Shown here one piece after another: positions 21,830-58,440 of a stretch of DNA of 64,000 bases (the stretch's first letter is position 1; each line of letters starts with the position of its first letter). A program made the position numbers and the translations under genes. The stretch comes from an uncultured Gemmatimonadota bacterium (GTDB lineage Bacteria > SM23-81 > DAOVCL01), in assembly GCA_964626665.1 (NCBI GenBank), contig CAZVGK010000007.1, forward strand, positions 24,505-88,504. Reading direction: 5' to 3'. The notes under the pieces were generated by a model that ran no database searches, had not been told where the DNA came from, and worked only from the letters and a program-made list of their open reading frames with translations.

Positions 21830-22095
21830 TAGATGACAGAAGAGGGCTTCTGCCACTCCCTGGGGAGCCTTCAACCACCCGTCCCGAACCGGAGCGGGTC
21901 GGGGAAGCTGGGTAGATGGGTTCTACCACACTTTAGTGTGGGTCTTCTATCCATGTCCGCTGAAGGGGCTTAAGCCCCGGGAACCCAACGAGTAACGAGC
22001 TACGATTGTAGTTTTTCCCATCAGTGAAATCCGTGTGATCTGTGGCTGTGCTTGGTTGCGGCCTTGTTGCACTGAGAATCCCTGGAAGAAAGGAC
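21830..22095. repeat. intergenic repeat cluster (20-mer variant ctaccacactttagtgtggg 21923-21942; 65-bp repeat 21990-22056; aatccgtgtgatctgtggctgtg..gttgcggccttgttgc 22035-22082, shared with 17437-17470 and 26597-26645)
   Basis: Direct sequence matches to the other regions listed. Confidence 0.8.
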
Positions 22096-22100
22096 ATCCT

Positions 22101-26148: not shown

Positions 26149-26149
26149 A

Positions 26150-27160
26150 AGATCTAGCGCAGCTTCGCCTCAAACCGACGAGGCGGGAAGCCTGCCCCGT
26201 GGGTAGTTTCACACCCTACGGGGCAAGTAAGGAAATCCTAAATCCGAATATCGAAATCCGAGACAAATCCCAATTCACCCCGTTAGATAGACAATTCTTT
26301 ATCTAACGGGGTGAACCAAATTCCAAATTCTCTAAACTAAGAACCCTTTGCCAAAAGCAGGTTTGCCTCAGGCTGCTTTCCACATTTGAATTTCGATGTT
26401 GCTCGCCCCGTTAAGTAGCTGGTTTTTCATTAGAACTCCTTGTGGTGAAAATTAGCAAAACCAGGGGAATCACTTACTGACGCATAAATAGATACTTAAC
26501 GGGGTAAAAATTTCGTGCTTCGAATTTAAAGGCAGCAGGGTTTATTGTTCAGCCCAAAACCTGACACAAATTTTAAGATCTTGCCTTATGAAGCCAGCTA
26601 GACATAGCGCAACAAGGCCGCAACCAAACAACAGCCACGGATTACACGGATAGAACATTCACCCTGCACTTATATTAAGTGCAGGGCAGGTGACACGAAT
26701 GGATGAATCTACACTAATAGATAGTTGTATAAATGCACCCCCTACATTTCTACCCGGCTTTAGCCCATTTGGAATGCTGTGACCGTGTCACAGCATGCGT
26801 CAACAGGGTTGACGCACTCTATATAAGGGCCTAAAGGCCCTGAACCCGCACTAAAGTGCGGTAGAAGTCTTCTACTCATCACAACCTGATAAACCTTGTC
26901 AAAAAAACAAGATCTTGCAAGATTGCAGTACAGCGGAGTAAGCAATCGGCTACGCGACTTATCAGGTGGTCATTCAGGACTTAAATTAGGTAGACCCTCC
27001 CCTTGGTATAATTAGGACGCAGATTTTCGCCGATAACCGCAGAAAATTAAAATCTTGACAATCTGCGTTCACCCCGTTAGATAAGATGTTAAAACTCATT
27101 AAATTTGATAAAAGACCTAATCTAATTATCTAACGGGGTTTATCTGCGTCCAAAAAAGGA
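26150..27160. repeat. 1-kb non-coding repeat mosaic: 14-bp-stem hairpin caccccgttagata..tatctaacggggtg 26275-26315; ggtggcagaa-family partial; caagatcttg element 26903-26930; hairpins 26775-26825; 20-mer 26845-26867; caccccgttagataa/ttatctaacgggg inverted repeat 27072-27150
   Basis: Read directly, with matches to other intergenic regions. Confidence 0.8.
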
Positions 27161-27165
27161 ATTTC

Positions 27166-27450
27166 CTATGCTTTCCAGTTACGCGCCCCATGCACGACTC
27201 CAGTAATCCAGACTTCATTGCCTTCAAGCCGATACATAATACGATAGGGTCTGTAAATGATTTCTCGGCAGGATTGATTGCCAATTTCAGGTATTACACG
27301 TCCAGAGAAGGGAAATTCCTGCAAACGATCCGTAACTTCCAATAACCGAGCTACAAAAAGAGTCGCTTGGTCAACAGAATCTCTCGCGATATATTCCGCG
27401 ATAGAATTGACATCATCTAATGCAGATGGTGCCCAAATTACTTTGCCCAT
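27166..27450 (-). CDS. parE: type II toxin, ParE/RelE family
   Basis: 94 aa with a typical ParE C-terminus (..EVWITGVVHGARNW). It overlaps the upstream antitoxin by 13 nt. Confidence 0.75.
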   Translation of the reverse strand: MGKVIWAPSALDDVNSIAEYIARDSVDQATLFVARLLEVTDRLQEFPFSGRVIPEIGNQSCREIIYRPYRIMYRLEGNEVWITGVVHGARNWKA

Positions 27451-27620
27451 TTTTGCAGCTTCTGCTTTGCCTCTTCGTGTGAAATGCCCTTCCCCTCTTG
27501 AACTTCACGTTCACCATGTTCAAACTTGATCTTGATGTACAGCGCATGGATAATGTCATCCATGGTTGCCTCATCTGGCAGAGTATCAATTACCTGTTTG
27601 GCTATGTCTTTAATGGCCAT
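27438..27620 (-). CDS. type II antitoxin (small helical, partner of ParE)
   Basis: 60-aa ORF upstream of, and overlapping, the toxin. Confidence 0.6.
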   Translation of the reverse strand: MAIKDIAKQVIDTLPDEATMDDIIHALYIKIKFEHGEREVQEGKGISHEEAKQKLQKWAK

Positions 27621-27957
27621 TTTATCCCTCCTTGTGGTGAAACCCCAGATATAATACCTAAGTTCCGCATTGCCAGACCCTTTTTAACCATCTAACAACC
27701 ACGCTATAGGGTGCAGTGGAGTAAAGTAAATTCCACAAGATCAGTATCAGTGCTTGGAAAATATTTGACCCTCATTTTCTAATCCTCCTTAAAAGACCTA
27801 TCGAAAAAGGCATTATGTACTGCTTCTCCATCCTCTAACAAGACAACTCTCAGATACTTATCCTCCTCTGATATTTTTGCCAACTTCTTAATCCTTCCAT
27901 CCGATTGGACTTCAGTTTTCGCAGGGTTGCGGAATAGCGATCAGGTGCAGCGATTTC

Positions 27958-28222
27958 TTAGGCCAATTCCCGTAGTAATCTGTCATATTCAGGATGAGTA
28001 CCAATCCAAAACCAGATTAAACCCTCATCTATTTCCACTGCCAGAGTTCGGTGCTTTCTGCCTACTCTGGCCGACCAGTACTTACCAGCTTTCTTGAGAT
28101 GTAAAGTAAGGATGTTTAGGGTTAGTTTTAAGAAGCTTGAAATTCTTATCTGCCAAGTCCTGAACAGATGATGGTAGTTGTTCATAGCAGGTCCAAAATG
28201 ACGGATTAGCAAAGTGTTTCAT
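27958..28222 (-). pseudogene. RelE/HigB-superfamily toxin interrupted by a +1 frameshift in a T-run
   Basis: ATG at 28222 overlaps the antitoxin TGA (ATGA). Frame 1 gives MKHFANPSFWTCYEQLPSSVQDLADKNFKLLKTNPKHPY.. then a stop. The C-terminal toxin core (LHLKKAGKYWSARVGRKHRTLAVEIDEGLIWFWIGTHPEYDRL) is in the +1 frame. Removing one T from cttt near 28100 restores a continuous ~87-aa toxin. Confidence 0.55.
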
Positions 28223-28419
28223 AACTCTTTGCACTTACCAGCCCGAAAGTCCGTTATGGCTTTATTGGCCAATTTCTCAAGCTTTCCTGATTGGACATCT
28301 TCCTCAAACTGGTTATCCCATATTTTTGCCTCAAACTCCTCAAACCATTCCCTCAAAGCCGCTAAGTCATCTTTTGGTAGCTGAGTAATTGCTTTTTCAA
28401 TTTCCTGTACTGTATTCAT
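28219..28419 (-). CDS. antitoxin, putative addiction-module component (TIGR02574-like)
   Basis: GGAGGTGA RBS 7 nt before ATG at 28419. MNTVQEIEKAITQLPKDDLAALREW.. motif. The longer ORF to 28545 is probably a spurious extension. Confidence 0.6.
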   Translation of the reverse strand: MNTVQEIEKAITQLPKDDLAALREWFEEFEAKIWDNQFEEDVQSGKLEKLANKAITDFRAGKCKEL

Positions 28420-28580
28420 CTGTATATCACCTCCTATGGGGCCTAACTTAACTTTTAAGCCGTATAAATCGCCAAAAAATACTTGATATAGCGTATATCT
28501 GTAAAAATTGTAGCCTAATCCCAAATTTTCTTTTATCTCTTCCAAGAAATTCTTATGTTATTACTAAATCATCGAGAATG

Positions 28581-28711
28581 CCCCGCAGCTTGCTGCGGGG
28601 ATGAATCGTGAGGTGGAGGGGTAAGCAGCGTCTTTAGGCGCTGCAAAGCAAATTCGAGTGACAAAGGTGCGAGAATTTGCATCACAGATACCCCGCAGCT
28701 CTGCTGCGGGG
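28581..28711. repeat. two 20-bp palindromic direct repeats (ccccgcagcttgctgcgggg 28581-28600; ccccgcagctctgctgcgggg 28691-28711) bracketing ~90 nt that contains a further hairpin gcagcgtctttaggcgctgc
   Basis: Read directly. The only ORF over it is an unlikely 81-aa reading frame. Confidence 0.6.
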
Positions 28712-28864
28712 AGATTCATTCCCTGCATGTTTCTGCATTTTTTCAATATACTAATTTCCCTTGGATGTGACAAGGATAAAATATGGGTAACCTGACTTAG
28801 AACTCCCAAAGACTATGCCATAGGGTGACGACAATAATACCCGTCAATGGCTCCTACACCCGGA

Positions 28865-29025
28865 TTATTCATAAATTTTAGCCACGAAGACACCAAGCAT
28901 GTCCTGAGCGAAGTTGAAGGATCACTAAAAATATAAAACATAAGAGAGTCGACCTGTTTAGTTTGTGCACTTTTCTTGTAACCTATATTTTATCAACACT
29001 TTAGGGCTTAGTGTCTTTGTGGCAT
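28865..29025. mobile_element. MITE-like ~160-bp element with terminal inverted repeats gccacgaagacaccaagc / gcttagtgtctttgtggc
   Basis: Inverted repeats at 28872-28889 and 28998-29020. The AT-rich interior has no ORF. A solo end copy lies at 337-380. Confidence 0.55.
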
Positions 29026-29108
29026 ATGAATCATTCAGGCTAATAGAAAATGCAGCCGAACGATCAGTTTTCTGAAGCCTTGAAGACGAAGGTTCTATCT
29101 GGGATGGA

Positions 29109-29816
29109 TTAAGATTTCTTTATTTTAGCCATATAATCCTCCACCTTCCTCCTTAGTGCATCCTCCGGGGAGAGCCCCAAAATCCGTGCCAGGCTCACCA
29201 AGGAGAAGAGCAAAGCACCCAAACTCCCCTCCTCCGCATCGACATCTCCCCTCCGAACAACCTCCCTTAATTCGGACAACTTTCCCTCAACTTCCTTATA
29301 TAACCCTTCAGTTTTGCCTTGGTCGGCCTTTACCCTGGAAAGCTTCTCCTGCACCCTGAAGGCTTTAAGAAGGGCAGGGAGGCTCTTGGGGACGCCGTCC
29401 AGAATTGTCCCTTCCCTTTCCTCTCCCTTTATCTTCTCCCAATTTTTCAAAACCTCCTGAGAGTTTCTCACCTTTACCTGACCGAAGACATGGGGATGTC
29501 TTCTGATCAGCTTCTTCACTATCCCATCAATTACCTCATAGATATCGAACTTCCCTTCCTCCCTGGCCATCTGGGAGTGAAAGACGATCTGCAGCAGGAG
29601 ATCCCCCAACTCCTCCTTAAACTTCTCATCATCCCCGGAATCAATGGTCTCTAAGACCTCATAGGTCTCCTCCAAAAGGTATGGTCTGATGCTTTGATGG
29701 GTTTGCTCTCTGTCCCAGGGGCATCCCCCAGGGCCCCTGAGTGTGGCCATTAATTCCACTAATTGGGTAAATTTACCCTCTTCCTCCAAGTTCCCTCCTC
29801 TATAACAGTTCACCAC
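29109..29816 (-). CDS. mazG: nucleoside triphosphate pyrophosphohydrolase MazG
   Basis: LVELMATLRGPGGCPWDREQTHQSIRPYLLEETYEV is the canonical MazG N-terminal motif. Confidence 0.85.
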   Translation of the reverse strand: MVNCYRGGNLEEEGKFTQLVELMATLRGPGGCPWDREQTHQSIRPYLLEETYEVLETIDSGDDEKFKEELGDLLLQIVFHSQMAREEGKFDIYEVIDGIVKKLIRRHPHVFGQVKVRNSQEVLKNWEKIKGEEREGTILDGVPKSLPALLKAFRVQEKLSRVKADQGKTEGLYKEVEGKLSELREVVRRGDVDAEEGSLGALLFSLVSLARILGLSPEDALRRKVEDYMAKIKKS

Positions 29817-29824
29817 GGAATCTC

Positions 29825-30250
29825 ACGGAGAAAGCAATTAAAATTGAGAATTAAACCTTCCTGCCATCAGGAGAGGACTTCTGATGAGGGGATGAAAATA
29901 GGAATTGGAAAATGGAAATTCCCTGAACTGGTAGGTCCCTCATCTAGCGGCTCTGAGGAATCCTTCTACCGCACTTTAGTGCAGGGTCCGTTTCCGTCAG
30001 GGCAGGAGCCCAGACGGCACACCCTCAGCTAAAGCCGGGTAGAAAGGGTTCTGCCACCTCAATCCATTTTCGGTGCCTGATGTTATGAATAATATGTGTT
30101 GTTTATCCTGTCTAAAAACGTAATTTCCTATAAGGTAGGGCAGTTGACGAATTGCTCCTACAACCTATGCAGGCCAATATATCTATTTGAGGCTTCAGAG
30201 GCAAGGGCAAAAAGGGCTTGATTTAGAGGATGTAATTTAATATATAAAGG
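29825..30250. repeat. intergenic hairpin cluster (gagattccgtggtgaac; aaaataggaa IR-family fragment; 20-mer variant 29966-29985; gctaaagccgggtagaa; ggttctgccacctc)
   Basis: Matches other arrays. Confidence 0.7.
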
Positions 30251-30253
30251 GAG

Positions 30254-32149
30254 ATGAGTAAGGATTATCGCTCCTGGGCCCAGATTGACCTCAAAGCTCT
30301 GGCCGAGAACATAGCGCAGATCAGATCCTTAGTGGGGCCAAATGTGAGGTTGCTTCAAGTAGTCAAGGCCGACGGCTATGGTCATGGGGCCTTGCAGGTG
30401 GCCAAGGTGGCCCTCTCCAATGGTGCCTATGGGTTAGGGGTGGCAAACGCCGAGGAGGGGATAACCTTAAGGCTGGGGGGTATAGAGGCTCCCATACTCA
30501 TCCTCAGCCCTTCCCTACCTGCTGAGGTCACTGAGATAGTAGAATATGGTCTCTCCCCTACCCTCTCCGACGACACCATTCTTTTTCTCCTCTCCCAAGA
30601 GGCCCTGAAGGCGGGTAGGGAGGTTATCGTCCATATTGAGGTGGATACCGGCATGGGCAGATCGGGCATCAGGCCTGAGGAGACAGGGGGATTGGCCAGG
30701 GAAATCCTCTCCCAGAATGGTCTAAAGCTGGGAGGCATCTTCTCCCATTTTGCCTCTGCTGACTTAGTGGATAGGGACTTCTGCTGGCTTCAGTTAGAAA
30801 GGTTTAGGGCGGTAATCGCCGAACTAAAGAGGGAGGGGATAAATTTTCCCTTAAAACATATAGCTAATAGTGCGGCCACCCTGGAGTTCCCCGATGCTTA
30901 CTTCGATCTGGTCAGGCCTGGGCTTCTCAGTTATGGCCTCTACCCATCTGAGAGGGTTAAAAAGAGAATAAAAGTTAAACCAGTCCTCAGCTTCAAGACC
31001 AAAGTAGCCCAGATAAAGGAGATCATTCCCGGTGAGTCGGTTAGCTATGGAAGAACCTGGAAGGCCCAAGCCCCCACTATGGTCGCCGTTATCCCCGTAG
31101 GATATGGGGATGGATACGATTTCCTCCTCTCCAATAATGGGGAGGTTCTGGTCAAAGGGAAAAGAGCTCCCATAGTGGGAAGGGTGACCATGGATCTGAC
31201 TATGGTGGATATAACTGGTATCCCTGGGGTTAAGATCGGGGACGAGGTGACCATCATCGGGAGGGATGGAGGAGAGGAGATAACTGCGGGGGAGGTGGCC
31301 GAGAGGGTGGGCACCCCGAGCTATGAGGTCCTCTGTCTTATTGGTAAGAGAGCGCCGCGGGTCTATACCCAGGGGGAGAGGGTTGGGGGGGTAAGGCGGG
31401 CTTTAAGGAGGAAGGATGTCTTAGACCAGCTTATCCCCCCTGGGGAGATGGAGGAGATGATCAAGGATTTCCTCCAACTGAGGTTGAATGAGGAGGTGGG
31501 GGAAGCCTTATACCATAGCCTCCTCAAGGCCATCTTTGGCCAGAAGGGGAGAGAGCTCCAGTATCGTCGGGACCTCAGGCATATAATCCGGTTTGCCGAG
31601 GAGGGGGAGGGATACAAGGTCAAAGCGAAGATCGAATATTATAAGATCCTCCGCTCTGACTCCTTCTATGTGGCCTGCGCCAGGGATGAGGCCAGTCTGT
31701 CCCGCTACTTTCAGGATCCCCGCTGTGAGTACAGATGGCTTTTGGAGAGCGGCAAGATAGGGGCCGCTGATTTCCAGGTCAAGGAGGTCAGGGTCGATGG
31801 CCGGAAGCTTGCCCCGCGCGAGGCCAAGCTAACGGAGAGGGGCTACGAGATCTACTTCCAGGAACCCAACCTCGGCCCTAAGCTCAACCAACCGGTAAAG
31901 ATGGAGATTGAGACCCAAACCTGGCAGGCCAAGGAGAACAGGGAACTTCCCATATATATCGTCTATCCCACCAAGGGAATGAAGGTAACCTTTGACTATA
32001 CGGAAACCGGCATTGCCGCCGTTAAAGCCATCAGCTTTTTGGCCGGCAAGGACAGATACCCGCAGAGAAGTACTTCTCAGGGGAAGTCAATTACCCTTTC
32101 CTTGGAGGGTTGGGTCTTCCCCAACAGCGGAATAACCTTTGTCTGGTAA
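30254..32149 (+). CDS. alr: alanine racemase fused to a ~260-aa C-terminal domain of unknown function
   Basis: The N-terminal 370 aa have the PLP-binding motif VVKADGYGHG and the racemase barrel. The ORF then continues a further ~260 aa (RRALRRKDVLDQL...GITFVW) with no stop. Confidence 0.8.
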   Translation: MSKDYRSWAQIDLKALAENIAQIRSLVGPNVRLLQVVKADGYGHGALQVAKVALSNGAYGLGVANAEEGITLRLGGIEAPILILSPSLPAEVTEIVEYGLSPTLSDDTILFLLSQEALKAGREVIVHIEVDTGMGRSGIRPEETGGLAREILSQNGLKLGGIFSHFASADLVDRDFCWLQLERFRAVIAELKREGINFPLKHIANSAATLEFPDAYFDLVRPGLLSYGLYPSERVKKRIKVKPVLSFKTKVAQIKEIIPGESVSYGRTWKAQAPTMVAVIPVGYGDGYDFLLSNNGEVLVKGKRAPIVGRVTMDLTMVDITGIPGVKIGDEVTIIGRDGGEEITAGEVAERVGTPSYEVLCLIGKRAPRVYTQGERVGGVRRALRRKDVLDQLIPPGEMEEMIKDFLQLRLNEEVGEALYHSLLKAIFGQKGRELQYRRDLRHIIRFAEEGEGYKVKAKIEYYKILRSDSFYVACARDEASLSRYFQDPRCEYRWLLESGKIGAADFQVKEVRVDGRKLAPREAKLTERGYEIYFQEPNLGPKLNQPVKMEIETQTWQAKENRELPIYIVYPTKGMKVTFDYTETGIAAVKAISFLAGKDRYPQRSTSQGKSITLSLEGWVFPNSGITFVW

Positions 32150-32156: not shown

Positions 32157-33575
32157 ATGAAAGCCTATGTAAATGGAAGATGGATAGAGGGAGGGGGAAG
32201 CTTCCCGGTCCACAATCCCTATAACAACCAACAGATAGGATCTGCCCCTCTGCTCTCCCCTCAAGATGTGAGGGAAGCGGTACACGGAGCTAAAGAGGGC
32301 TTGGCCCAGATGGATTCCCTCTCCGCGTACCAACGTTACCAGATACTCCAGAGGGCGGCCTTAGGGTTAGAGGAGGCCACAGAGAAGTTCGCCCACCTCC
32401 TCTCCCTGGAGGTGGGTAAAACTATCAGGGAGGCCAGAGGGGAGGTCTCCCGGGCAATCTAGACACTTACCCTCTCTGCAGAGGAGGCCAAGAGGATTGG
32501 GGGGGAGGTGGTTCCCTTCGGCTCTGCCCCCGGTTCCGGGGAGAGGATTGGCTTCTACCTCAGGGTTCCCATTGGGGTTGTTGCGGCCATTACCCCTTTC
32601 AACTTTCCCCTTAACCTGGCTTTACACAAGGTGGCCCCGGCTTTGGCTGCCGGCAATAGCGTCATCCTCAAGCCCGCCTCGGCCACACCCCTCACCAGTG
32701 AGCTCCTCTGCCAGCTTCTCTTAGATGCTGGCCTCCCTTCCAGGGCGATTAGCCTGGTCACCGGAAAGAGGGAGGAGGTGGGGGAAGCCTTGGTCAGGGA
32801 TGAAGGGGTAAGGATGATTACCTTCACCGGATCTCTGGAGGTAGGGAAGAGGATAATGGGGGGATTGGGCTTGAAGAAGGCCACTATGGAGTTGGGTTCC
32901 AACTCTGCGGTAATCGTGGAACGGGATGCCCTCCTCTCAGAGGCCCTCCCCCGGATAAGGGATGGGGCCTTTGCCCTTGCCGGACAGGTCTGCATCTCGG
33001 TGCAGCGGGTCTATGTGCAGGAGGGGATATACGATGAATTCTTAAGTGGCTTTATCCCCTTAGCCCAAGAGCTAAAATCGGGAGATCCCTTAGATGAGAC
33101 AACCGATATGGGGCCGATGATCTCTCCCCAGGCCGCGCAGCGGGCCAGGGAATGGGTGGAGGAGGCCATGGAAAGGGGAGGGAAGCTCCTTTGCGGTGGG
33201 GAGATAGAGGGGAGTTTTATGCAGCCCACCGTGCTGGCCCAAGTCTCCCGGGACTGTCGGGTTTGCTCCCAGGAGGCTTTTGCCCCTCTGGTGGTGGTCA
33301 ATCCCTATACCGAGCTTGATGAGGCCATTGAAGAGGTAAACAATTCCATATATGGCCTGCAGGCAGGGATATATACACAGGATCTCGATCGGGCCCTCAA
33401 AGCAGCACGCAAAATAGAGGTGGGAGGGGTAATCATAAATGACATCCCCACTTTCCGGGTTGATCTTATGCCCTATGGTGGGGTAAAAGGAAGCGGCTTA
33501 GGCCGGGAGGGACCTAAATATGCAAGGGAAGAATTCACCCAGCCAAAACTTGTCTCCATCAAGCTCCATAAGTAG
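32157..33575 (+). pseudogene. NAD(P)-dependent aldehyde dehydrogenase interrupted by one in-frame TAG (32460-32462). It may be a pseudogene, a sequencing error or stop-codon readthrough.
   Basis: ORFs 32139-32462 and 32508-33575 are in the same frame, separated only by a TAG at the ALDH position ..EVSRAI*TLTLSAEEA. The rest is intact (catalytic-Cys region CISVQRV present; length ~472 aa). Confidence 0.7.
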
Positions 33576-35398: not shown

Positions 35399-35399
35399 T

Positions 35400-36520
35400 C
35401 AATTAGCAATGCAAATGACACCCCTCCCCCCTTCCGTGAAAGAATAGTCTCCTTAATTTGTGTTGATGATAGCGGGGGCTACAACTAAGCAATCAAGGGG
35501 CTTTGGCTAGCATGTTGATCCTAAAAATGTGCTGTCAGGAGGCAACTCTTGACAGCACTTAAGGGAAACCTCTTCCACAAAATCCCCGAGCGGTCAGATC
35601 TCACATCTAAGCCATCAGAATCCCGATTCTGGCAGTGAAGATGGTAGAAAGAAACAGGGAACCGCAGATTTACGCGGATATGCGCTGGTAGGGCTCTGCC
35701 CTACCAGGCAAGGATTCCACCGCACTTTATTGCGGGTCCTTCTATGGAGCTAAAGCCCCATAACCCCAGCTAAAGCTGGGTAGAATGGAGAAAATAGGAA
35801 GTGTCCCTATTTTCTATTTAGTGTCTGTCCGGGAATCCAGTTTTGAGGGAGATGTCATTGCGAGGAGTGAGGGACGAACGACGAAGCAATCCCTTTATTT
35901 CCAGGAGATTGCTTCGCTCCTTTCAGTCGCTCGCAATGACGGAAATATTTCAATTTTGGTAGTTTTCGGACAGACACTATTTAGATATCCGAGCGTATTT
36001 CCCAGACTCTGAATCTGTGAATAGGGCTTTACGTTGTTTAATTCCACTGCTGCCCAAAAAACATAGAGCAAAGGATAAGAAAGCCTAACAAGGCGCTGCA
36101 CCTGACCGCCAACAGCGTGGCAGTTTTCTAAAGTTTTGTGCCCTATCAAAGTTTAGTGTTTTTTTTTCAAAGTTTGTGCTCCAAATTTTCAAACCACTAT
36201 TCAGTCTGAGGCGACACGGTATGCTTTGCGAATGAAGGGGTAAACTCTCCCCAATCATATGCTTCGGATTTCGAAATTGAACCTTAGCTGGTTTCATAAG
36301 GCAACATCTTAAAATTTGTGCCAAGTTTTAGGGTCAAAAAATAGACTCTACTGATTTGAAATCCTCCTGAGCGGTCAGATGCCCTTGGCTGACCACAGGA
36401 TGGAGAGGTGGCAGAATCGGGGTTCTGTCACCTCAAGCAAAATTTGTGTCAAGTTTTGCAGCTACCGATTTTCCCCGTCACTCAATCCTCGATTTGCTTA
36501 ATATCAGGTGCCTCCCTTCG
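35400..36520. repeat. 1.1-kb non-coding region of stacked repeats: gtgctgtcaggaggcaactcttgacagcac 35529-35558; cagaatcccgattctg; 20-mer variant 35717-35736; cccagctaaagctgggtagaa 35763-35785; MITE-like element with GTGTCTGTCCGG terminal IRs ~35822-35975; four copies of AAARTTTGTGYCAAGTTT 36130-36470; three-hairpin composite 36368-36434
   Basis: Read directly. ORF 35785-36012 lies wholly within the IR element and is considered spurious. Confidence 0.8.
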
Positions 36521-36526
36521 CTTTTT

Positions 36527-39500
36527 TCAATCACAGTTGGGGTTCCCTCTTTTTGTTAAGTCTACCTCTTTGGTTTCTCCCCCTCTCAGTTCAAAGACCT
36601 CATCCCTAACCTGTACCTTCATTGGTTCTGCACCGCCGGGAAGGGCTTTAATTTTCAGATTGTCGTTACCAATGTCCAGATCAAGCCAATGCCCCCGATA
36701 TCGAAGATGAAAACTCACCACCTTTATCTCATCAGGGAATGAAGGATTAAACCTCAGTATATCACCGCGTGTCTCCAATCCTGTATAGCCCCGGGCAAGC
36801 ATATCCACACAGCCGGCCATGGCCCCGAGATGGATACCTTCCGGAGTGGTGCCGCCCTGAATATCGGCCATGTCTGTCTTCAGGGCCTGATTAAAGAGTT
36901 CCCACGAGCGTTCCCTGTCCCGCCGAGCAGCCACCCAGGAATGGACAATCCAGCTCAGGGACGAGCCGTTGGAGGTGCGTTTCAGGTAATAATCGATGTT
37001 TTGGGGGATGGTTTCATATTCAAAGGGGTAGCCAAGTTGGTTGAATAGCTTTTCCAGTTCCTCCGCGCTAAGGAGATAAAAGAGCATCAGGACATCGGCC
37101 TGTTTGGAGACCTTGTAACGGTTGGGAGTGTCCCCCTCAGCCTCCAGTATACGGTCCAGACGCTGGATATTCCCATACTTCTTTTGATAACCTTCCCAGT
37201 CGAACTCCTCCAGGCGGTCATATCCCTCAAACTGGCTGATGATCCCGCCATCGTGAAAAGCAACCCGCATCTTGTGGCTCATCTCTTCCCATCTCTCTAT
37301 CTCCGCTTTTTTTATGTCGAGTTTTTCGCATAGCTGCCTCCACTGCTCTTTAGGGAGAAGGTGAGGCAGCTCCAGGGCGCGGTTCATCACAAAGGCCACC
37401 ATAATGTTGGTGTAGGCGTTGTTGTTCAGGCCAGGCTGATCGGCTCCGGGATAGCTGTCATGATATTCGTCTGGGCCCATGACGCCATGGATCTCGTACC
37501 GTTCAAGCTCCCGGTTATAGGTGGCTATACTGGCCCAGAAACGGGCGATCTCCAGGATCATCTCACCTCCGTAAAAGGACAAAAAATCTAAGTCGTTAGT
37601 GATCTGGCAGTACTGCCATATATTATGGACAATGGCAACATTTATGTGCCGCTGCAGATGCGAATTGTCCGGGTGCCAGCGGCCTGATTTTGGGTTGAGA
37701 TGGACCAGTTGGGTCTCCTCCCTGCCGTTACTTGCACTCTGCCACGGATACATAGCCCCTTTGTAGCCAAGCTTGCGAGCGGCCCGCCGGGCCTCTTTGA
37801 GACGGCGATAGCGATACATTAGCAAGGTCCGGGTAATCTCAGGAGCCCTATAGTTAAGAACAGGGAAAATAATCATCTCATCCCAGAATATGTGTCCCCG
37901 GTAAGCCTCGCCGTGCCAGCCCCGGGAGGGCATCCCCACATCAATATCGATGGAGTGCATAGAAGAGCTTTGCAGAATGTGGAAGCTGTATAAACGGATG
38001 GTTCTCTGTATTTCATGATCAACTGCGGAGGCACTGAATTTCGCCCTGATGTCAAACCTGCGCCATTGATGTTCCCAGGTAAGGCTATGAGACCGAAGCA
38101 AACCGGCGAATCTTTCGGCGGCCACAACCACCTTCTCCGCCTCCAGGGCGCACTCAGAGACAGCAGGATCCCGGGAGGTAAACAAGGAAACCGTCTTTTC
38201 TATGGTGAGGTCGGCCCCTCTGGTAAGCTCTACTATAAAGTGTTGGGCAATATAGCCGGGCTCCCTCACTGGTTTAGGTTCAACAACCCAGGGTTCGCTA
38301 TCACGGAAGATTTCAGTCCTTGCCCCCAGCGCCACTTCCAACCTAGATTGATTGGTGCGCACCTTCAAAAGCATGCTGTTCTCATTAATCCTCCTGCTTT
38401 CCACCGGCTTCAGGTGCTTGTTATTCAAGTTCTTATAACGTTCCACGCCGGAGTTGGTGATTCGACCATCCAAGGCGGAGCTAATCTCTAATTTTCCAGC
38501 CCAGTTTAACGGCGTAATAACGGTCTCCAGGCCCGCCAAATGCATGTCTCCTGCGTGGACCAGGCGGCGCTGGAGCAGCCTAGTTTCCCTGCCTTTCTGG
38601 TCCCGGAACCGCACCGTCCGGTGGAGTACCCCTCTCTTGATATCCAGATATTGATGGTAGCAAAGTATCTTCACCGCCTCCAAATCAAACCATTCCTCAT
38701 CCGGGATGCGGAAATTGAGGCAAAGCCAGTTAGGCATATTGACCAGGTCCTCGTTTTCTATGGTGCGGCCAGGCATTTTTGTCTTCAGGCGGTTGTAGCC
38801 TCCGGCCAGGTAGGTTCCGGGATAGTGGACATTACCCGCGTTTGCCTCTGGCGCTGCCCCCCGGGTGGCAAAATAACCGTTTCCCAGGGTACACAGCGCC
38901 TCCCTCAGACCTTCTTCCTGGGGATCAAACCCCTCATATGTCAGGGACCAACTCCTCCCTTCTTCCAGCGCTGGGGTCAGTTTCTGCAGAAACTCCAGAA
39001 CCTGATTGGGGGATTCCAGCCTGGACACAGCCTCCGTGGATCGGGAACCTTCCCCTACCACAATGGCTATGCCACGCCCGGCAAGTGCCTCAAAGGCATC
39101 CTCATCGGTGATATCATCTCCTATATAAAAGGGAAAGATCCCTGGACCAACAAGATCCAAGGTGTCCAGAAGCCAAAAGAGTGCTTCTCCCTTATCCCAG
39201 TCGATGTCGGGCCTCAGTTCATAGACCTTCTTCCCCTCTGCCTTGCGAAGCTTGGGATAAAGTCCAATCATCTGATCTACAACCTCTTCCACCGAACCAA
39301 CCTGTTTGGCCTCAACATTTCGGTAATGAACCGCAATGGAAAATCTCTTGCGCTCCACCTGGGCGCCATCGATACTCGTAAGTTGCTGTTTCAGTTTGTC
39401 TTCTACCTCATCGATCACCGGGAGGAGTTTTTTGGCTTCATTATGCTCCAACCTAAGACCTCCCGGTCCCTCTATCTCGAAACCGTGGCTGCCTGCATAA

Positions 39501-40501
39501 TAGAGGTTGTCAATATCCACCCTCTCTTTCACATCTTTAAGGCCTCTTCCACTTATTATCGCTACGAGGCATTGATCGGCCAAGCTGGTAAGCGTTTTTC
39601 GCATCTCTTCAGAGAGGATGGCATCCTCGGGATGGGAGACAATCGGGGTTAGTGTGCCGTCATAATCGAGAAAAACGACTACCTCTTTGCCTTCTATCTG
39701 CTCCTTGATTTTCTCAAAGGAGTCCAGGGCATGGGGAAGTTCCCTTATCTCGGCCGCCATTTCTATTTCCGAAAGGTCCTCGACTACCAGGTCGGCTCCC
39801 CCCTCTTTCAGCGCTTTTTCCTGGTGTGCACGATCTACTCCGATAACCAGGCCAAAGTTCCCTTTGCTTCCCGCCTGAACCCCGGAGACAGCATCCTCCA
39901 CCACCACGCTCCTTTCCGGTTTAACCTTCAGCCGCCGGGCTGCCTCCAGAAAGATGTCCGGGTCAGGTTTGCCCATAAGGTCAAGGCTCTCCGCGTCCAC
40001 CCCGTCCATCTTAGCATCAAACAGGCCAGTGATACGGGCCGCATCCAGGATATTAACACAGTTCTTGCTGGAAGAGACGATGGCAGTCTTAAAGCCTCCC
40101 TTTCTGAGCCGGTTGATCAAGTCTATGGTGGATTCATAGACCTCCACCCCTTCACTTTTCAGCCGCTTCAAGAACAGCCGGTTTTTCCTGTTCCCCAGTC
40201 CGCAAACCGTTTCTTCATCGGGTGAATCAGCAACATTGCCGTATGCAATCTCTATGCCCCGGGAGATAAGAAAGCTCTTCACTCCGTCATAACGGGGTTT
40301 GCCATCAACCCATTTGCGATACTCTACATCGGAATCAAAGGGTTTAAATGTTCCGCCCTCGCCGTGTTTCTGCAGATATTCATCGAACAGTTCCTTCCAT
40401 GCCTGAGCATGAATTTTGGCGGTTTTAGTAACTACTCCATCCATATCAAAAATAACCGCGTCATACCCACCTCTGGAGATTTTATGTTTCTTATTACTCA
40501 T
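36527..40501 (-). CDS. trifunctional fusion: HAD beta-phosphoglucomutase + trehalose-6-phosphate phosphatase (OtsB-like) + GH65 trehalose/kojibiose-type phosphorylase
   Basis: N-terminal VIFDMDGVVTKT (beta-PGM HAD motif I), a second HAD domain VVFLDYDGTLTP (TPP), and a large central/C-terminal GH65 region. 1324-aa continuous ORF. Confidence 0.8.
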   Translation of the reverse strand: MSNKKHKISRGGYDAVIFDMDGVVTKTAKIHAQAWKELFDEYLQKHGEGGTFKPFDSDVEYRKWVDGKPRYDGVKSFLISRGIEIAYGNVADSPDEETVCGLGNRKNRLFLKRLKSEGVEVYESTIDLINRLRKGGFKTAIVSSSKNCVNILDAARITGLFDAKMDGVDAESLDLMGKPDPDIFLEAARRLKVKPERSVVVEDAVSGVQAGSKGNFGLVIGVDRAHQEKALKEGGADLVVEDLSEIEMAAEIRELPHALDSFEKIKEQIEGKEVVVFLDYDGTLTPIVSHPEDAILSEEMRKTLTSLADQCLVAIISGRGLKDVKERVDIDNLYYAGSHGFEIEGPGGLRLEHNEAKKLLPVIDEVEDKLKQQLTSIDGAQVERKRFSIAVHYRNVEAKQVGSVEEVVDQMIGLYPKLRKAEGKKVYELRPDIDWDKGEALFWLLDTLDLVGPGIFPFYIGDDITDEDAFEALAGRGIAIVVGEGSRSTEAVSRLESPNQVLEFLQKLTPALEEGRSWSLTYEGFDPQEEGLREALCTLGNGYFATRGAAPEANAGNVHYPGTYLAGGYNRLKTKMPGRTIENEDLVNMPNWLCLNFRIPDEEWFDLEAVKILCYHQYLDIKRGVLHRTVRFRDQKGRETRLLQRRLVHAGDMHLAGLETVITPLNWAGKLEISSALDGRITNSGVERYKNLNNKHLKPVESRRINENSMLLKVRTNQSRLEVALGARTEIFRDSEPWVVEPKPVREPGYIAQHFIVELTRGADLTIEKTVSLFTSRDPAVSECALEAEKVVVAAERFAGLLRSHSLTWEHQWRRFDIRAKFSASAVDHEIQRTIRLYSFHILQSSSMHSIDIDVGMPSRGWHGEAYRGHIFWDEMIIFPVLNYRAPEITRTLLMYRYRRLKEARRAARKLGYKGAMYPWQSASNGREETQLVHLNPKSGRWHPDNSHLQRHINVAIVHNIWQYCQITNDLDFLSFYGGEMILEIARFWASIATYNRELERYEIHGVMGPDEYHDSYPGADQPGLNNNAYTNIMVAFVMNRALELPHLLPKEQWRQLCEKLDIKKAEIERWEEMSHKMRVAFHDGGIISQFEGYDRLEEFDWEGYQKKYGNIQRLDRILEAEGDTPNRYKVSKQADVLMLFYLLSAEELEKLFNQLGYPFEYETIPQNIDYYLKRTSNGSSLSWIVHSWVAARRDRERSWELFNQALKTDMADIQGGTTPEGIHLGAMAGCVDMLARGYTGLETRGDILRFNPSFPDEIKVVSFHLRYRGHWLDLDIGNDNLKIKALPGGAEPMKVQVRDEVFELRGGETKEVDLTKRGNPNCD

Positions 40502-40559
40502 TAAGTTGTCTCCATATAAAGGACTTACAAAAATTGAGTTTAAACCCCTCTCTCACCGG

Positions 40560-41790
40560 AAAGATGAAAACCTATTTTCTGGAAGATTCTTATATAATCT
40601 GCACTATAATCTTGCAATATCTTGTTTTTGAGCAAAGTTTCCCAAGTCGGCTTGAACAGTCAACTTCTACCGCACTTTAGTGCGGGTTAAAGGCCTTTAG
40701 ACCCCTCTTATTAAGGGCTAAAGCCCTTACCTACCCCCCGCTTTAGCGGGGGTAGAAGTGTAGGGGTCGCATTTATACGATCCGCCCGGGCTCCGATTCA
40801 TCGGAGCCCGCACAAGGAACCAAGGGATTTACATGACCTGACAGTGGCAGAAGCGGGGTTTTGCCACCTCAAAAAAGAACACTACAAGTAGAAGCAACGA
40901 TCCCCGAGCAACAATGGTCTTTTGGTTGCGGCTGCGCTGTGGGAATCTGCGTTCGCCCCGTTAAAGAATTTAGCGACCGTAAGGAGTTAATTTATCTCTA
41001 AATCCCTGTTTTTAAGACCTCATTAATTTCCTCAATCAATCCAAATGTCTGCAGAAATTACATAGCAATTCCCTTGCCATCCAATCATACCTAAAGGGGA
41101 AGATTTCACCCTTCAAATCATAATTTGTTCCTTATTAAGAGCTTAAACGGAAAGATTCTTCCCATAATGTTTAGTAGAACTGGATTTGACCCTGGCTTTG
41201 GGGATTGCAATTTACCCTAAGATTCTCGGAATGCAAAGGAAAAAAATAGAAAAAAATAGGAAAAATAGGGACACTTCCCATTTTCTCTGGGGGTTCTCTC
41301 CTGCGCGGGTTCGGAAGAGCCCTTCTCAAAGGGCAGGCATCTTAAGGGGAGATGGATCTGTGAGAATTTTGTTGGTAGAGACAGTACAAAGAAGAATGAC
41401 TCCTAACCAGGTAACAGCCTAAGAGGGATAGCCCCAAAAATGGGAAGTGTTCCTATTTTCCTAAGGTGGAGGGACTTTTCATCTTGACAGAGGGGGATGG
41501 CTTTACTAACTTGTAGCATAAGAATCTCCATTTTTAGACAGGATTGTCAGGATAAGCGAACCTCCCCGCCCACAAGGCGGGGCATCCAAAACAGTCTCCT
41601 CCCCCTTGATGGGGGAGGACTAAAGAGGGGGTGAAAATTATATCCGCTTTCCCCCTCACCCTAACCCTCTCCCACTAGGGGAGAGGGAACTATAAGGATG
41701 TCATTCATCCCCGTTCACAGAACGGGGTATTCTGATAGGTTTTCATAAAAATCATGTAAATCCTGTCCATCCTGTCAGAGAAACCCACCG
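40560..41790. repeat. 1.2-kb non-coding repeat region (caagatcttg element 40598-40630; 20-mer 40665-40686; gggctaaagccc; ccccgctttagcgggggtagaa 40733-40760; gtggcagaagcggggttttgccac 40844-40867; ttagcgaccgtaagg 40969-40990; IR pair aatagggacacttcccatttt / aaaatgggaagtgttcctatttt ~41262-41460)
   Basis: Read directly. ORF 41186-41422 lies inside the IR element and is considered spurious. Confidence 0.8.
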
Positions 41791-41793
41791 ATC

Positions 41794-51870: not shown

Positions 51871-56236
<4,366 letters not shown>

Positions 56237-57071
56237 GATGAGGGAAGAACGGACAAAGCTCCTCCTGACCTGGCTGGGGTTATCCTTTATGGTTATCTTC
56301 TGCCTCACCCCCTTTTTCTTTATGATAATGGTCTCTCTGAGCAAAGACCCCACATTCCTATCCTTGCAGAAGGTTAAATATCTCCTCACCCTAAGGAACT
56401 ATATTCACATCCTGAGAGCGGGATCGCTTCACTTCCCCGCCTACTTGAGAAATAGCCTGATCATCTCCGCCCTGGTGGCAATCTTTGCCACATTTGTGGC
56501 CGGGCTGGCTGCCTATGCTTTTTCCAGGTATCGTTTTCCGGGAAGGGTTCTCATCCCCCTGGGAGTCTTGGGAATCTCTATGTTCCCCCAGATAAGCGTA
56601 GTGGGCTATCTTTTCAAGATAATGACGGGATTGGGCTGGATAAATACCTATAATGCCTTGATTTTCCCTTATATAGCCTGGGCCTTACCCCTTGCCCTCT
56701 GGATAGTCCTGAGCTATTTTATGCAGATCCCCCAGGAGCTGGACAGGGCCGCCTTGGTGGATGGGGCGTCCCGATTTCAAACCCTCTATAAGATAATCTT
56801 CCCCTTGGCATTACCAGGGCTCTTCTCCACCGCATTGTTGGTCTTTATCTTCTCCTTCAATGAGTTTCTCTTTGCCCTGATGCTTACCACAGACCAGGCG
56901 GCCAGGACCATTCCGGTGGGGATTGCCCTCTTCCAAGGCCTCCATGGAGAGATACCCTGGGGGCATATTATGGCGGCTTCCACAATTTCCTCCATCCCTC
57001 TGGTTCTGCTTACCGTTGGCTTTCAGCGCTATATCATTCAGGATTTAACCAAAGGGGCATTGAAGGGATAA
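56237..57071 (+). CDS. sugar ABC transporter permease (MalG/ThuG-like)
   Basis: ATG at 56237 directly after the TGA of the previous permease. Six transmembrane segments. Confidence 0.75.
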
Positions 57072-57700: not shown

Positions 57701-57710
57701 AAGGAGGTGA

Positions 57711-58420: not shown

Positions 58421-58440
58421 ATATTGGTATCTTTCTGAAG

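Follow-up and report, generated by a model that had tools for sequence, protein, structure and literature searches.

The window, i.e. the whole stretch of 64,000 nucleotides that was analysed, carries on its reverse strand a gene for a protein of 1324 amino acids, which combines a beta-phosphoglucomutase (beta-PGM), a trehalose-6-phosphate phosphatase (TPP) and a GH65 module (Table 1). The gene is real. An independently made gene call of JGI gives an identical product of 1324 aa and the same protein, with 100% identity, is present on 13 contigs from several samples, so that an assembly artefact is ruled out. The frameshift which the earlier note had named as a danger to the fusion does not exist, as one unbroken frame spans all three domains. 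A separate OtsA-OtsB fusion and genes of a sugar ABC importer, also proposed in that note, are likewise real; the former reaches 1017 bits with the bifunctional TPS/TPP equivalog NF011071 (cutoff 634). In this operon no gene for an ATPase was found, and no further long ORF follows the permeases. Furthermore, the importer gave matches to MalE/F/G, GlcT/U and UgpA/E below threshold only, so that no substrate is assigned. The tri-domain gene is located 11 kb away from this group, with DNA-repair, GGDEF and Lpt genes between, and does not share an operon with it. The description of the locus as a "consolidated trehalose metabolism" is therefore not supported.

Table 1 Features of the tri-domain gene and of the otsAB/ABC region (positions of the window)
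Feature	Position	Strand	Basis and remarks
beta-PGM/TPP/GH65 fusion gene	36527..40501, stop codon included	-	single 1324-codon ORF, ATG start
Shine-Dalgarno-like GGAG	40510..40513	-	8 nt upstream of ATG; direct sequence reading
N-terminal HAD-IA domain, beta-phosphoglucomutase type	39752..40465, residues 13-250	-	Pfam, TIGR02009, PDB 8h5s match
Central HAD-IIB trehalose-6-phosphate phosphatase domain	38966..39688, residues 272-512	-	PF02358, TIGR00685, 5gvx match
C-terminal GH65 enzyme, (alpha/alpha)6 catalytic domain, predicted trehalose-6-phosphate phosphorylase	36572..38953, residues 517-1310	-	Pfam, 9lb6 match, fingerprint/loops
Glu1012 codon, GH65 catalytic acid, GPDEYH motif	37466..37468	-	aligned to 3wiq; codon verified
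Bifunctional OtsA-OtsB gene (T6P synthase + phosphatase)	51871..54084	+	GT20 E 1e-159; TPP E 2.5e-52; NF011071
MalEFG-like genes for sugar uptake by an ABC system, immediately downstream of otsAB	54087..57071	+	SBP_bac_1, BPD_transp_1
Solute-binding protein of ABC system	54087-55361	+	SBP_bac_1
Two ABC permeases	55358-56236, 56142-57071	+	BPD_transp_1

The three-domain composition, already read from the translation in the earlier note, is borne out by Pfam and NCBIfam. Pfam assigns HAD/HAD_2 to residues 13-214 (E 2e-25), Trehalose_PPase (PF02358) to 277-492 (E 1e-56) and GH65 to an N domain (521-777, E 9e-72), a catalytic domain (839-1232, E 3e-125) and a C domain (1242-1305, E 1e-15). The N-terminal domain passes the beta-PGM-family subfamily model TIGR02009 (161 bits, cutoff 153) but fails the strict beta-PGM equivalog (104 bits, cutoff 189), which counts against the assignment. 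Its match to the beta-phosphoglucomutase structure 8h5s is strong (194 bits, E 3e-56), compared with 80 bits for the Lactococcus lactis enzyme 1lvh; unlike lactococcal PgmB, it belongs to the actinobacterial Rv3400 type and has about 23 extra residues inserted in the cap. The key residues are D19 as nucleophile, D21, T27, H31, R70, S145, K178, E202 and D203. The commonest form of the 11-site beta-PGM motif, DDTTRSSNKED, occurs in 41 of 72 domains, and among 18 tri-domain proteins neither the catalytic nor the cap residues vary.

The TPP in the middle is genuine. It passes the equivalog TIGR00685 (187 bits, cutoff 68) and possesses motif I (D279-Y-D281-G-T283), motif II (S317-G-R319) and motif IV (G-D462-D463-I-T-D466-E467), which are conserved throughout the tri-domain family. 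The closest solved relative is the essential T6P phosphatase OtsB2 of Mycobacterium tuberculosis (Rv3372, structure 5gvx; 257 bits, E 3e-75), and the alignment continues into the final third of the neighbouring beta-PGM-type domain. In OtsB2, however, the N-terminal HAD is just a degenerate remnant (E-D of motif IV replaced by S-A) and a GH65 part is missing. In the GH65 domain, Glu1012 corresponds to E483 of the kojibiose phosphorylase of C. saccharolyticus according to the alignment with 3wiq and is invariant in the family; the role of this catalytic residue has been described (PMC11442529). In 18 tri-domain proteins of different phyla the catalytic residues of all three domains are invariant, and they are also kept in most of 80 related species loci. 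All three activities are therefore under selection.

Besides the catalytic acid, the GH65 domain contains the phosphate-site residues R860, Y867, S1180, S1181 and H1224, which set phosphorylases of this family apart from hydrolases (PMC11442529); judged by these residues, the domain is a phosphorylase and not a hydrolase. A published six-position fingerprint distinguishes T6P phosphorylases (DQGQDE) from trehalose (TRIGPP) and kojibiose phosphorylases (EEAPWS), and the Caldithrix abyssi enzyme with DQGQDE forms T6P from beta-G1P and G6P. The tri-domain protein reads DQAQDE (D585, Q921, A923, Q931, D945, E1122), i.e. with a single mismatch, A923 in place of G, that counts against the assignment. 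In 44 of the 80 related loci a MAFFT alignment gives exactly the string of L. lactis TrePP. In addition, the protein resembles T6P and kojibiose phosphorylases in its long loops 3 and 7. With TrePP of lactic acid bacteria it has 20 positions in common as well as 8 residues inserted behind the catalytic Glu, all of them absent from kojibiose and maltose phosphorylases. Among solved structures 9lb6, the orthologue of L. lactis TrePP from a lactic acid bacterium, matches best (442 bits), followed by the kojibiose phosphorylase 3wiq (340 bits). Overall identity is nearly the same for L. lactis TrePP (33%) and kojibiose phosphorylase (32.7%), which counts against the assignment; the call thus rests on the fingerprints, the bit scores and a bootstrap-free NJ tree. 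On this basis the domain is predicted to belong to the T6P-phosphorylase subgroup, with trehalose-6-phosphate as substrate.

The earlier note had suggested that trehalose is both synthesised and catabolised or recycled. In a degradation or recycling reading, the TPP domain would convert T6P to trehalose, a GH65 trehalose (or maltose or kojibiose) phosphorylase would cleave it to beta-G1P and glucose, and beta-PGM would yield G6P. This order also results in a linear three-step pathway; many homologues are named "alpha,alpha-trehalase" by JGI, and a metagenomic survey placed such GH65 matches nearer to trehalose phosphorylase than to maltose phosphorylase. However, that survey used two reference enzymes only, and the fingerprint differs from those of trehalose, kojibiose and maltose phosphorylases (KV[MF]NES for the last). 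The +1 subsite W-Q-N resembles TrePP and not trehalose phosphorylase (W-R-A) or kojibiose phosphorylase (W-E-T), the loops that are long here are short in trehalose phosphorylases, and in the same alignment the clade excludes a trehalose-phosphorylase-like paralogue from one related locus (L077). As the polypeptide also carries a TPP, it is unable to degrade free trehalose; the recycling reading is not supported and appears very unlikely. A substrate new to the family, such as another phosphorylated or a non-sugar acceptor whose product would be handled by the HAD domains in a different pathway, would agree with the identity of only about 33% to any characterised GH65 enzyme, the deviating fingerprint position and the many GH65 subgroups without assignment. 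It is nevertheless quite improbable in view of the passed TPP equivalog, the OtsB2 alignment with all motifs kept, the majority fingerprint of the clade, which is that of experimentally confirmed T6P phosphorylases, and otsA as a recurrent neighbour.

The fusion was thought to be uncommon, but nearly all of the best 120 protein clusters share the HAD-TPP-GH65 architecture, which is found in Archaea, Desulfobacterota, Actinomycetota, Chloroflexota, Planctomycetota, Nitrospirota and Proteobacteria. The closest genome relatives of the protein are archaeal (68% identity, as for the homologue in Ca. Ethanoperedens), and the family is annotated by NCBI as "trehalose-phosphatase". In the best 80 species genomes the modules are fused or adjacent without exception: one gene in 31, HAD-TPP plus GH65 in 21, three genes in 3 and other combinations in the remainder, with a nearly constant order HAD, TPP, GH65. 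The three modules are thus evolutionarily linked by fusion and fission. Nine of the 80 loci contain HAD-GH65 fusions without TPP, which would fit a purely catabolic TrePP/beta-PGM pair of the L. lactis style and count against a role in synthesis.

The architecture is of the mycobacterial OtsB1 type. OtsB1 of M. tuberculosis (Rv2006/MT2062) comprises 1327 aa, against 1324 aa here, and its naming as trehalose-phosphatase homologue/glycosyl hydrolase fits the HAD-TPP-GH65 order; full-length members from other Mycobacterium species, Rv2006 itself not being part of this comparison, are 44-50% identical. The protein is therefore a further member of a known, widespread and uncharacterised kind. OtsB1 belongs to the DosR regulon, is annotated as trehalose-phosphatase/glycosyl hydrolase and its function is still called unknown in papers. 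Actinobacterial loci possess dormancy-type neighbours (USP, DosS/DosR-like, nitroreductase, PfkB), whereas the gene described here, which the analysis placed in a diderm and probably deltaproteobacterial genome, has no dormancy-regulon neighbours. For OtsB1 an absence of TPP activity and a deletion without phenotype were reported, and both are counted against a synthetic function. If this held for the family, one or two domains could be catalytically dead scaffolds and the protein in effect one enzyme with regulatory appendages. Indeed, clear degeneration is seen in some mycobacteria: M. gastri, M. innocens, M. scrofulaceum, M. iranicum and M. basiliense have 1220-1250-aa proteins without the beta-PGM nucleophile and cap, and in M. 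gastri and M. innocens the TPP motifs are also replaced, by N-Y-D-S and G-G-D. However, every catalytic residue of the three sites is kept in the present protein and most family members, including the 1314-1327-aa mycobacterial ones, and according to a later paper the TPP inactivity of OtsB1 was claimed without published data. Dead domains are thus highly improbable for this protein.

The reading preferred here, to which about an even chance is given, is that of a single polypeptide whose three enzymes are all active and revolve around T6P, and which would synthesise trehalose independently of nucleotide sugars. The Rv3400-type domain would interconvert G6P and beta-G1P, the inverting GH65 phosphorylase would reversibly form T6P and Pi from beta-G1P and G6P, and the OtsB2-type phosphatase would irreversibly release trehalose and Pi. 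The three activities would therefore close a route from G6P to trehalose (2 G6P → trehalose + 2 Pi) with the phosphatase step as pull. From standard free energies this conversion is exergonic by roughly 15 kJ/mol. As the fusion lacks any trehalose-phosphorylating activity, free trehalose is not degradable by it, and the only sustained net flux possible is from G6P to trehalose or the removal of T6P. The substrates actually used, the direction of net flux and a channelling between the domains are what we infer from these arguments. The route would run parallel to the OtsA-OtsB enzyme encoded 11 kb away, which likewise makes and dephosphorylates T6P on one chain with the same TPP type; there, T6P is formed from UDP/ADP-glucose via GT20, whereas the donor here would be nucleotide-free beta-G1P derived from G6P.

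The same two chemistries are known from L. lactis TrePP (EC 2.4.1.216) and PgmB, with the same fingerprint, phosphate site and partner beta-PGM (orthologue structures 9lb6/9lb7), despite an overall identity to TrePP of only 32-33%. In Lactococcus, however, these are separate proteins for the catabolism of PTS-imported trehalose without a TPP; with the TPP fused in, the logical direction would be reversed. A 2026 paper describes that TrePP strongly favours T6P synthesis and terms ATP-free T6P synthesis "new-to-nature". Engineered ATP-free cascades of maltose phosphorylase and TrePP, optionally with beta-PGM for making G6P or beta-G1P in situ, use the same step from beta-G1P and G6P to T6P and prove TrePP-based chemistry and thermodynamics feasible. 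They are in vitro mixes of separate enzymes starting from maltose, with no TPP step, and not a natural single protein. In cultures of Ca. Ethanoperedens trehalose accumulates to 75% of the extracted metabolites and added trehalose is not consumed, which is counted in favour of synthesis.

Several points count against synthesis. No assay of any enzyme from the fused family was found in the reachable literature, and, next to the OtsA-OtsB which the organism possesses, a second synthetic route looks redundant. Such an enzyme, if unregulated, would also drain G6P. Clearance or buffering of T6P, made by OtsA and then converted to trehalose by the TPP or to two G6P by GH65 and beta-PGM, would keep the level of T6P, a toxic or regulatory intermediate, down and feed carbon back into glycolysis. 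T6P would be the substrate of both the TPP and the T6P-phosphorylase domain, the characterised lactococcal pair runs catabolically, and a 2025 review gives TrePP solely as a degradation route. Clearance would also agree with the fusions lacking TPP, the dormancy-type surroundings in actinobacterial loci and otsA as direct neighbour in several loci; otsA or otsAB lies 7-342 bp from the module in five relatives and 1.6 kb in a sixth. However, with OtsA as the sole T6P source an energy-wasting cycle would result, in which UDP-glucose is spent to regain G6P. Moreover, phosphorolysis is thermodynamically disfavoured. It requires a T6P concentration far above equilibrium, and both the fused TPP and the OtsB part of the OtsA fusion would prevent this. 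In 14 of the 80 loci, which represent six lineages or more, the module is adjacent to a bona fide PEP synthase, an enzyme of gluconeogenesis; this points to supply of G6P, not to its recovery. The clearance reading is thus rather unlikely, and the anabolic neighbours of the module are counted in favour of synthesis.

If the preferred reading, nucleotide-sugar-free synthesis, is true, one natural protein would make trehalose from glucose-6-phosphate without a nucleotide sugar, a coherent interpretation as far as the sequence can tell.

The tri-domain gene encodes a protein in which Pfam finds a HAD domain (residues 13-214), a Trehalose_PPase domain (residues 277-492, E 1e-56) and the N-terminal, catalytic and C-terminal domains of GH65 (residues 521-777, 839-1232 and 1242-1305; E 9e-72, 3e-125 and 1e-15, respectively). 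This is the tri-domain layout of about 1300 aa, with HAD-IA followed by Trehalose_PPase and by GH65 N/catalytic/C, and the three-enzyme content that the earlier note had read from the sequence is correct according to both Pfam and NCBIfam. The same 1324-aa product was found in a JGI gene call (metagenome 3300031365, contig Ga0307443_1000042), and 13 contigs from several samples encode an identical protein. Since there is a single ORF and the identical protein recurs on these 13 contigs, the fusion is neither an assembly artefact nor the result of a frameshift between separate genes, a possibility which the earlier note had raised itself.

Features of the tri-domain gene and of other loci in the window
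Feature	Position	Strand	Remarks
Tri-domain fusion gene	36527-40501	-	single ORF, 1324 codons, ATG start
GGAG, 8 nt 5' of the ATG of the tri-domain gene		-	read from the sequence
ORF-poor flanks of the tri-domain gene	35399-36526 and 40502-41793		full of GC-rich hairpins
AAAATRGGAAGTGTYCCTATTTT, copy	35791-35813	+	
AAAATRGGAAGTGTYCCTATTTT, copy	41262-41284	-	
AAAATRGGAAGTGTYCCTATTTT, copy	41437-41459	+	
Bifunctional trehalose-phosphate synthase/phosphatase (otsA-otsB)	51871-54084		equivalog 1017 bits vs 634
Solute-binding protein and two permeases, MalEFG-like sugar ABC	54087-57071		downstream of otsA-otsB
Two BrxC/BrxD-like ATPases and a DEAD/Cas3-like helicase in a row	944-5540	-	
701-aa ORF	22035-24140		no Pfam match
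Long ORF-poor stretches	26000-30000 and 57100-61700		lower GC (0.44-0.48)
Alanine racemase ORF	30254-32149		631 aa; ~260 extra C-terminal residues without Pfam match
Aldehyde dehydrogenase ORF	32508-33575		covers only profile positions 116-461; N-terminus absent

The gene appears to be monocistronic and is flanked by ORF-poor regions of 1.1 and 1.3 kb. No Rfam match reached the gathering threshold anywhere in the window, so no regulatory RNA was found in these flanks, and scans for promoters and terminators gave no more sites there than in shuffled sequence. The 23-nt palindromic unit AAAATRGGAAGTGTYCCTATTTT has exactly three copies in the window, all in the two flanks (0 expected). Further short sequences from the flanks appear again between genes at about 0.5-0.9, 17.0-17.3, 26.5-26.9, 51.0, 57.1-57.2, 59.25 and 60.7-60.9 kb, and the repeats look like a genome-wide REP-like family. 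The separate OtsA-OtsB fusion and the sugar ABC genes which the earlier note had pointed out do exist; a common operon with the tri-domain gene is ruled out by a distance of 11 kb with unrelated genes in between. No ATPase gene for the sugar ABC system was found at the locus and no family model assigns a substrate to it. It is unusual for an operon to combine a trehalose synthase fusion with an importer. Elsewhere in the window the alanine racemase and aldehyde dehydrogenase ORFs may be a pair of genes affected by a frameshift or a rearrangement, and the row of ATPase and helicase genes looks like a phage-defence locus.

The C-terminal part of the tri-domain protein is a complete GH65 enzyme. 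GH65 phosphorylases possess phosphate-binding residues in place of the catalytic-base Glu of the hydrolases. In an alignment to the kojibiose phosphorylase of C. saccharolyticus (CsKP, 3wiq), with residue roles taken from a review of the family (PMC11442529), the catalytic acid is E1012 in GPDEYH, which is equivalent to E483 in CsKP and invariant in the family. The phosphate site comprises R860, Y867, S1180, S1181 and H1224 (K330, Y337, S631, S632 and H675 in CsKP), and its pattern R-Y...S-[ST]-H is kept across the GH65 members of the module, that is, of the HAD, TPP and GH65 units encoded by one fused gene or by adjacent genes. F872, W873, D874, K1133 and Q1134 map to the -1 subsite. The full phosphate site marks the enzyme as a phosphorylase and not a hydrolase. 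A hydrolase had been considered due to the depositors' label 'trehalose-6-phosphate hydrolase' for 9lb6, a structure from lactic acid bacteria; this reading is refuted by the phosphate site and by a database search in which 9lb6 is 63% identical to the 769-aa trehalose-6-phosphate (T6P) phosphorylase of Lactococcus lactis (TrePP). The 9lb6 entry probably belongs to the 2025 TrePP structure paper cited by a 2026 bioprocess paper. The GH65 domain scores 442 bits against 9lb6, 340 against kojibiose phosphorylase, 210 against glucosylglycerol phosphorylase and 178 against maltose phosphorylase.

Specificity in GH65 can be predicted from six co-evolving positions (64, 392, 394, 402, 416 and 585 in CsKP numbering), and the T6P phosphorylases (EC 2.4.1.216) form subgroup 22 with the fingerprint DQGQDE, verified by assay of the Caldithrix abyssi enzyme (APF18594.1); trehalose phosphorylases have TRIGPP, kojibiose phosphorylases EEAPWS and maltose phosphorylases KV[MF]NES (De Beul et al. 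2021). T6P phosphorylase activity has also been confirmed by experiment for an enzyme of Ca. Kuenenia stuttgartiensis. In the window protein the positions are D585, Q921, A923, Q931, D945 and E1122, so that five of six match DQGQDE and Gly is replaced by Ala; position 416 is W or D, three residues apart, depending on the alignment, and WxPDNS is common to TrePP and the window protein. In a MAFFT alignment the fingerprint string is identical to that of L. lactis TrePP in 44 of the 80 best related loci, and clearly different in a trehalose-phosphorylase-like paralogue of one locus. T6P phosphorylases are described with long loops 3 and 7 and a short loop 11, and trehalose phosphorylases with all three short. 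In the window protein, loop 3 aligns gapless to the long CsKP loop and exceeds that of maltose phosphorylase by about 10 residues; loop 7 exceeds that of CsKP by 4 residues, and loop 11 belongs to the short type. Kojibiose phosphorylases, too, have long loops 3 and 7. Furthermore, the clade and TrePP have in common 20 positions and, right behind the catalytic Glu, an insertion of 8 residues, none of which is shared by kojibiose or maltose phosphorylase. A neighbour-joining tree without bootstrap and without trehalose and nigerose phosphorylase references groups the window protein with TrePP, to the exclusion of kojibiose and maltose phosphorylases and of the paralogue.

The features of trehalose phosphorylase (EC 2.4.1.64) are absent: the fingerprint is DQAQDE and not TRIGPP, the +1 subsite motif is W-Q-N in place of W-R-A, and loops 3 and 7 are long. 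On the fingerprint and the loop lengths, a trehalose, kojibiose or maltose phosphorylase was rejected. The GH65 domain is predicted to be of the T6P phosphorylase type, an assignment which rests on the fingerprint, the overall identity to TrePP being only 33% and no higher than to kojibiose phosphorylase. That the domain acts on a substrate so far undescribed for GH65 would be in keeping with this low identity; with a fingerprint of the T6P type we regard it as quite improbable. A single-sequence structure model of the domain was discarded (pLDDT 35.5).

The N-terminal domain passes the model of the beta-PGM-family subfamily (TIGR02009, 161 bits vs cutoff 153) and misses the threshold of the equivalog for beta-PGM, EC 5.4.2.6 (TIGR01990, 104 bits vs 189), and is therefore named only beta-PGM-type. 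Its best solved match is the beta-phosphoglucomutase 8h5s (194 bits, E 3e-56), with which it has in common an insertion of about 23 residues in the cap, absent from L. lactis beta-PGM. HAD motifs I-IV, including the Asp nucleophile and Asp+2, and the cap equivalents of L. lactis T16, H20 and R49 are present; the domain carries D19, D21, T27, H31, R70, S145, K178, E202 and D203, and these key residues are invariant or nearly so across the tri-domain family. The structure 8h5s is probably M. tuberculosis Rv3400: its two catalytic Asp are 27 and 29 in chain numbering, which fits the D29A mutant made of Rv3400, a protein with beta-PGM activity supported in vitro and in vivo.

The case considered in the earlier note that the middle domain is not a TPP (EC 3.1.3.12) is removed by the trehalose-phosphatase equivalog (TIGR00685, 187 bits vs cutoff 68) and by intact HAD-IIB motifs, D279-Y-D-G-T, S317-G-R and G-D462-D-I-T-D-E (pattern DxDGT, SGR, GDDxTDE). 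It matches OtsB2 of M. tuberculosis (Rv3372, PDB 5gvx), the essential T6P phosphatase of this organism, with 257 bits (E 3e-75). The alignment to 5gvx spans residues 182-514 of the window protein and covers, beyond the TPP, also the final third of the beta-PGM-type domain, which is matched by OtsB2 residues 87-150 with S-A in place of the motif IV E-D. The N-terminal domain of OtsB2 seems to be what is left, in degenerate form, of a HAD-TPP gene of this module. In 18 of 18 aligned tri-domain proteins from different phyla the listed residues of all three active sites are invariant, and the window protein has three intact, conserved active sites of the beta-PGM, T6P phosphorylase and TPP types.

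An OtsB1-type protein has been known for more than 20 years from the M. tuberculosis genome. OtsB1 (Rv2006) has 1327 aa and is similar to the window protein, as compared by published length and annotation, the sequence comparison being with other mycobacteria; M. tuberculosis was not found among the listed matches. Over residues ~13-1310 the window protein shares 44-50% identity with proteins from Mycobacterium, Mycolicibacterium and Nocardia, one of which is named 'putative glycosyl hydrolase/MT2062'. OtsB1 has been described both as a large trehalose-phosphate phosphatase homologue and as a glycosyl hydrolase; it was reported to lack TPP activity and a deletion phenotype, with a function 'yet unknown' (Chem Rev 2024), and papers of 2024 still call the function of OtsB1-type proteins unknown or uncharacterised. 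Mycobacterial members of 1314-1327 aa keep all motifs. In variants of 1220-1250 aa (M. gastri, M. innocens, M. basiliense, M. scrofulaceum and M. iranicum) the beta-PGM nucleophile has been lost together with most of the cap. Two of these, from M. gastri and M. innocens, additionally show degenerate TPP motifs, with N-Y-D-S for motif I and G-G-D for motif IV; the degenerate subset comprises the species loci L026, L029, L033, L035, L037, L038, L040, L053 and L056 and the homologous proteins P0391 and P0398. The idea of a degenerate M. tuberculosis OtsB1 was withdrawn, degeneracy being seen only in the 1220-1250-aa variants of other mycobacteria. That domains of the fusion are dead, or that its GH65 domain is a trehalose phosphorylase after all, we hold to be still less probable than an undescribed GH65 substrate.

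Having all three enzymes on one polypeptide had been called uncommon, but the fusion is not rare. Nearly all of the best 120 clusters in a collection of 5.8 billion proteins are about 1310-1340 aa long with the same Pfam set, and a scan of one genome per species gave at least 600 matches. The clusters come from Nitrosococcus, Actinomycetota, Desulfohalobiaceae, Chloroflexota, Elusimicrobiota, Epsilonproteobacteria and archaea and bear names such as 'trehalose-phosphatase', 'beta-phosphoglucomutase family hydrolase' and 'alpha,alpha-trehalase'. The tri-domain gene is a new member of a widespread, routinely annotated family and not surprising in itself. Among the best 80 species loci of the at least 600 matches, to which all following counts refer, the module is one gene in 31, HAD-TPP plus GH65 in 21 and three separate genes in three; HAD-GH65 without TPP occurs in nine, TPP-GH65 in five and other combinations in a few, the order HAD, TPP, GH65 being nearly constant. 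A search of a representative library confirmed the range of fusion states, with counts that are not clean there, as tri-domain proteins merge into few clusters at 50% identity. This pattern of fusion and fission is strong evidence that the three predicted activities act together and cooperate.

In the proposed reaction sequence the beta-PGM would hold G6P in equilibrium with a small pool of beta-G1P, the GH65 phosphorylase would form T6P and phosphate from beta-G1P and G6P, and the TPP domain would remove T6P irreversibly. The net conversion, 2 G6P to trehalose and 2 Pi, is exergonic by about 15 kJ/mol according to our own estimate (hydrolysis of G6P about -14 and of trehalose about -12 kJ/mol). 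T6P formation from beta-G1P and G6P was found to be strongly favoured in the 2026 bioprocess paper. Whether the three activities form such a pathway from G6P to trehalose we judge to be an even call. More tentatively, the tri-domain protein may be a self-contained trehalose synthase that is independent of UDP- or ADP-glucose, as may its counterparts encoded by two or three genes, in hundreds of bacteria and archaea, mycobacteria among them.

The catabolic logic of the earlier note was not borne out, as the GH65 domain is of the T6P type and the fusion has no trehalose-phosphorylating activity, so that free trehalose would not be degradable by it. With a TPP present, the sole alternative role would be the removal of T6P made by OtsA. 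An otsA or otsA-otsB gene does lie 7-342 bp from the module in 5 of 80 loci and at a distance of 1.6 kb in one more; however, clearing T6P with OtsA as its source would be a futile cycle, and we consider this role unlikely. A PEP synthase gene (NCBIfam equivalog, 1080-1177 bits) stands beside the module in 14 of 80 loci from at least six lineages (an archaeon, Pseudomonadales, Dehalococcoidia, Desulfobacterales, Nitrospirales and mycobacteria; among them L008, L012, L020, L022, L024, L026, L029, L038, L044 and L068), in six of them less than 300 bp away on the same strand. Cultures of Ca. Ethanoperedens have been described with massive trehalose pools, and added trehalose was not consumed. Synthesis of trehalose fits both the PEP synthase link and these pools better than degradation. 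In addition, a PfkB-family hexose kinase is near the module in six of 80 loci, and actinobacterial loci have universal stress proteins, DosS/DosR-like regulators, nitroreductases and PfkB among their neighbours.

The top genome relatives among the matches listed are the ethane-oxidising archaea Ca. Ethanoperedens thermophilum and Ca. Argoarchaeum ethanivorans (loci L001 and L002), whose identity of 68% exceeds that of every named bacterial genome among these matches; the closest named proteins in the best 120 clusters are deltaproteobacterial. The genes for LpxB, LpxK, KdtA, LptF/G and OmpA in the window are those of a diderm bacterium. Since the archaeal relatives are closer than the named bacterial ones among the matches listed, the sequences suggest an inter-domain transfer of the tri-domain gene, in agreement with a proposal that trehalose genes have passed between alkane-oxidising archaea and their sulfate-reducing partners (PMC13597711). 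A 2026 survey of alkane-oxidising consortia gave these genes only the label TreP/MalP.

As a stress protectant and a carbon store trehalose is of major importance, and it is essential in mycobacteria. To our knowledge, none of the textbook routes of its synthesis (OtsAB, TreYZ, TreS, TreT and TreP) starts from G6P alone. A 2025 review of T6P treats TrePP solely as a route of degradation and makes no mention of the fusion, and the HAD-TPP-GH65 fusion is not discussed in the GH65 reviews. Our literature search found no published function of the fusion and no proposal of a G6P-to-trehalose route; most subscription journals were outside its coverage and prior publication is possible. If the proposed function is wrong, the tri-domain gene is just one more member of a large family with routine annotation. 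If it is true, it would add a natural trehalose pathway, give a function to the long-orphan OtsB1 family and explain the build-up of trehalose in energy-limited sulfate reducers, alkane-oxidising archaea and dormant actinobacteria. The protein would be a natural single-protein catalyst for the ATP-free production of T6P and trehalose, a T6P scheme recently termed new-to-nature by engineers, and the essential mycobacterial OtsB2 would descend from the module. That the GH65 part is of the T6P phosphorylase type and that the three units of the module go together in every fusion state leads to a directly testable hypothesis for OtsB1, and the value of the finding is this sharpened functional hypothesis for the whole OtsB1 family.
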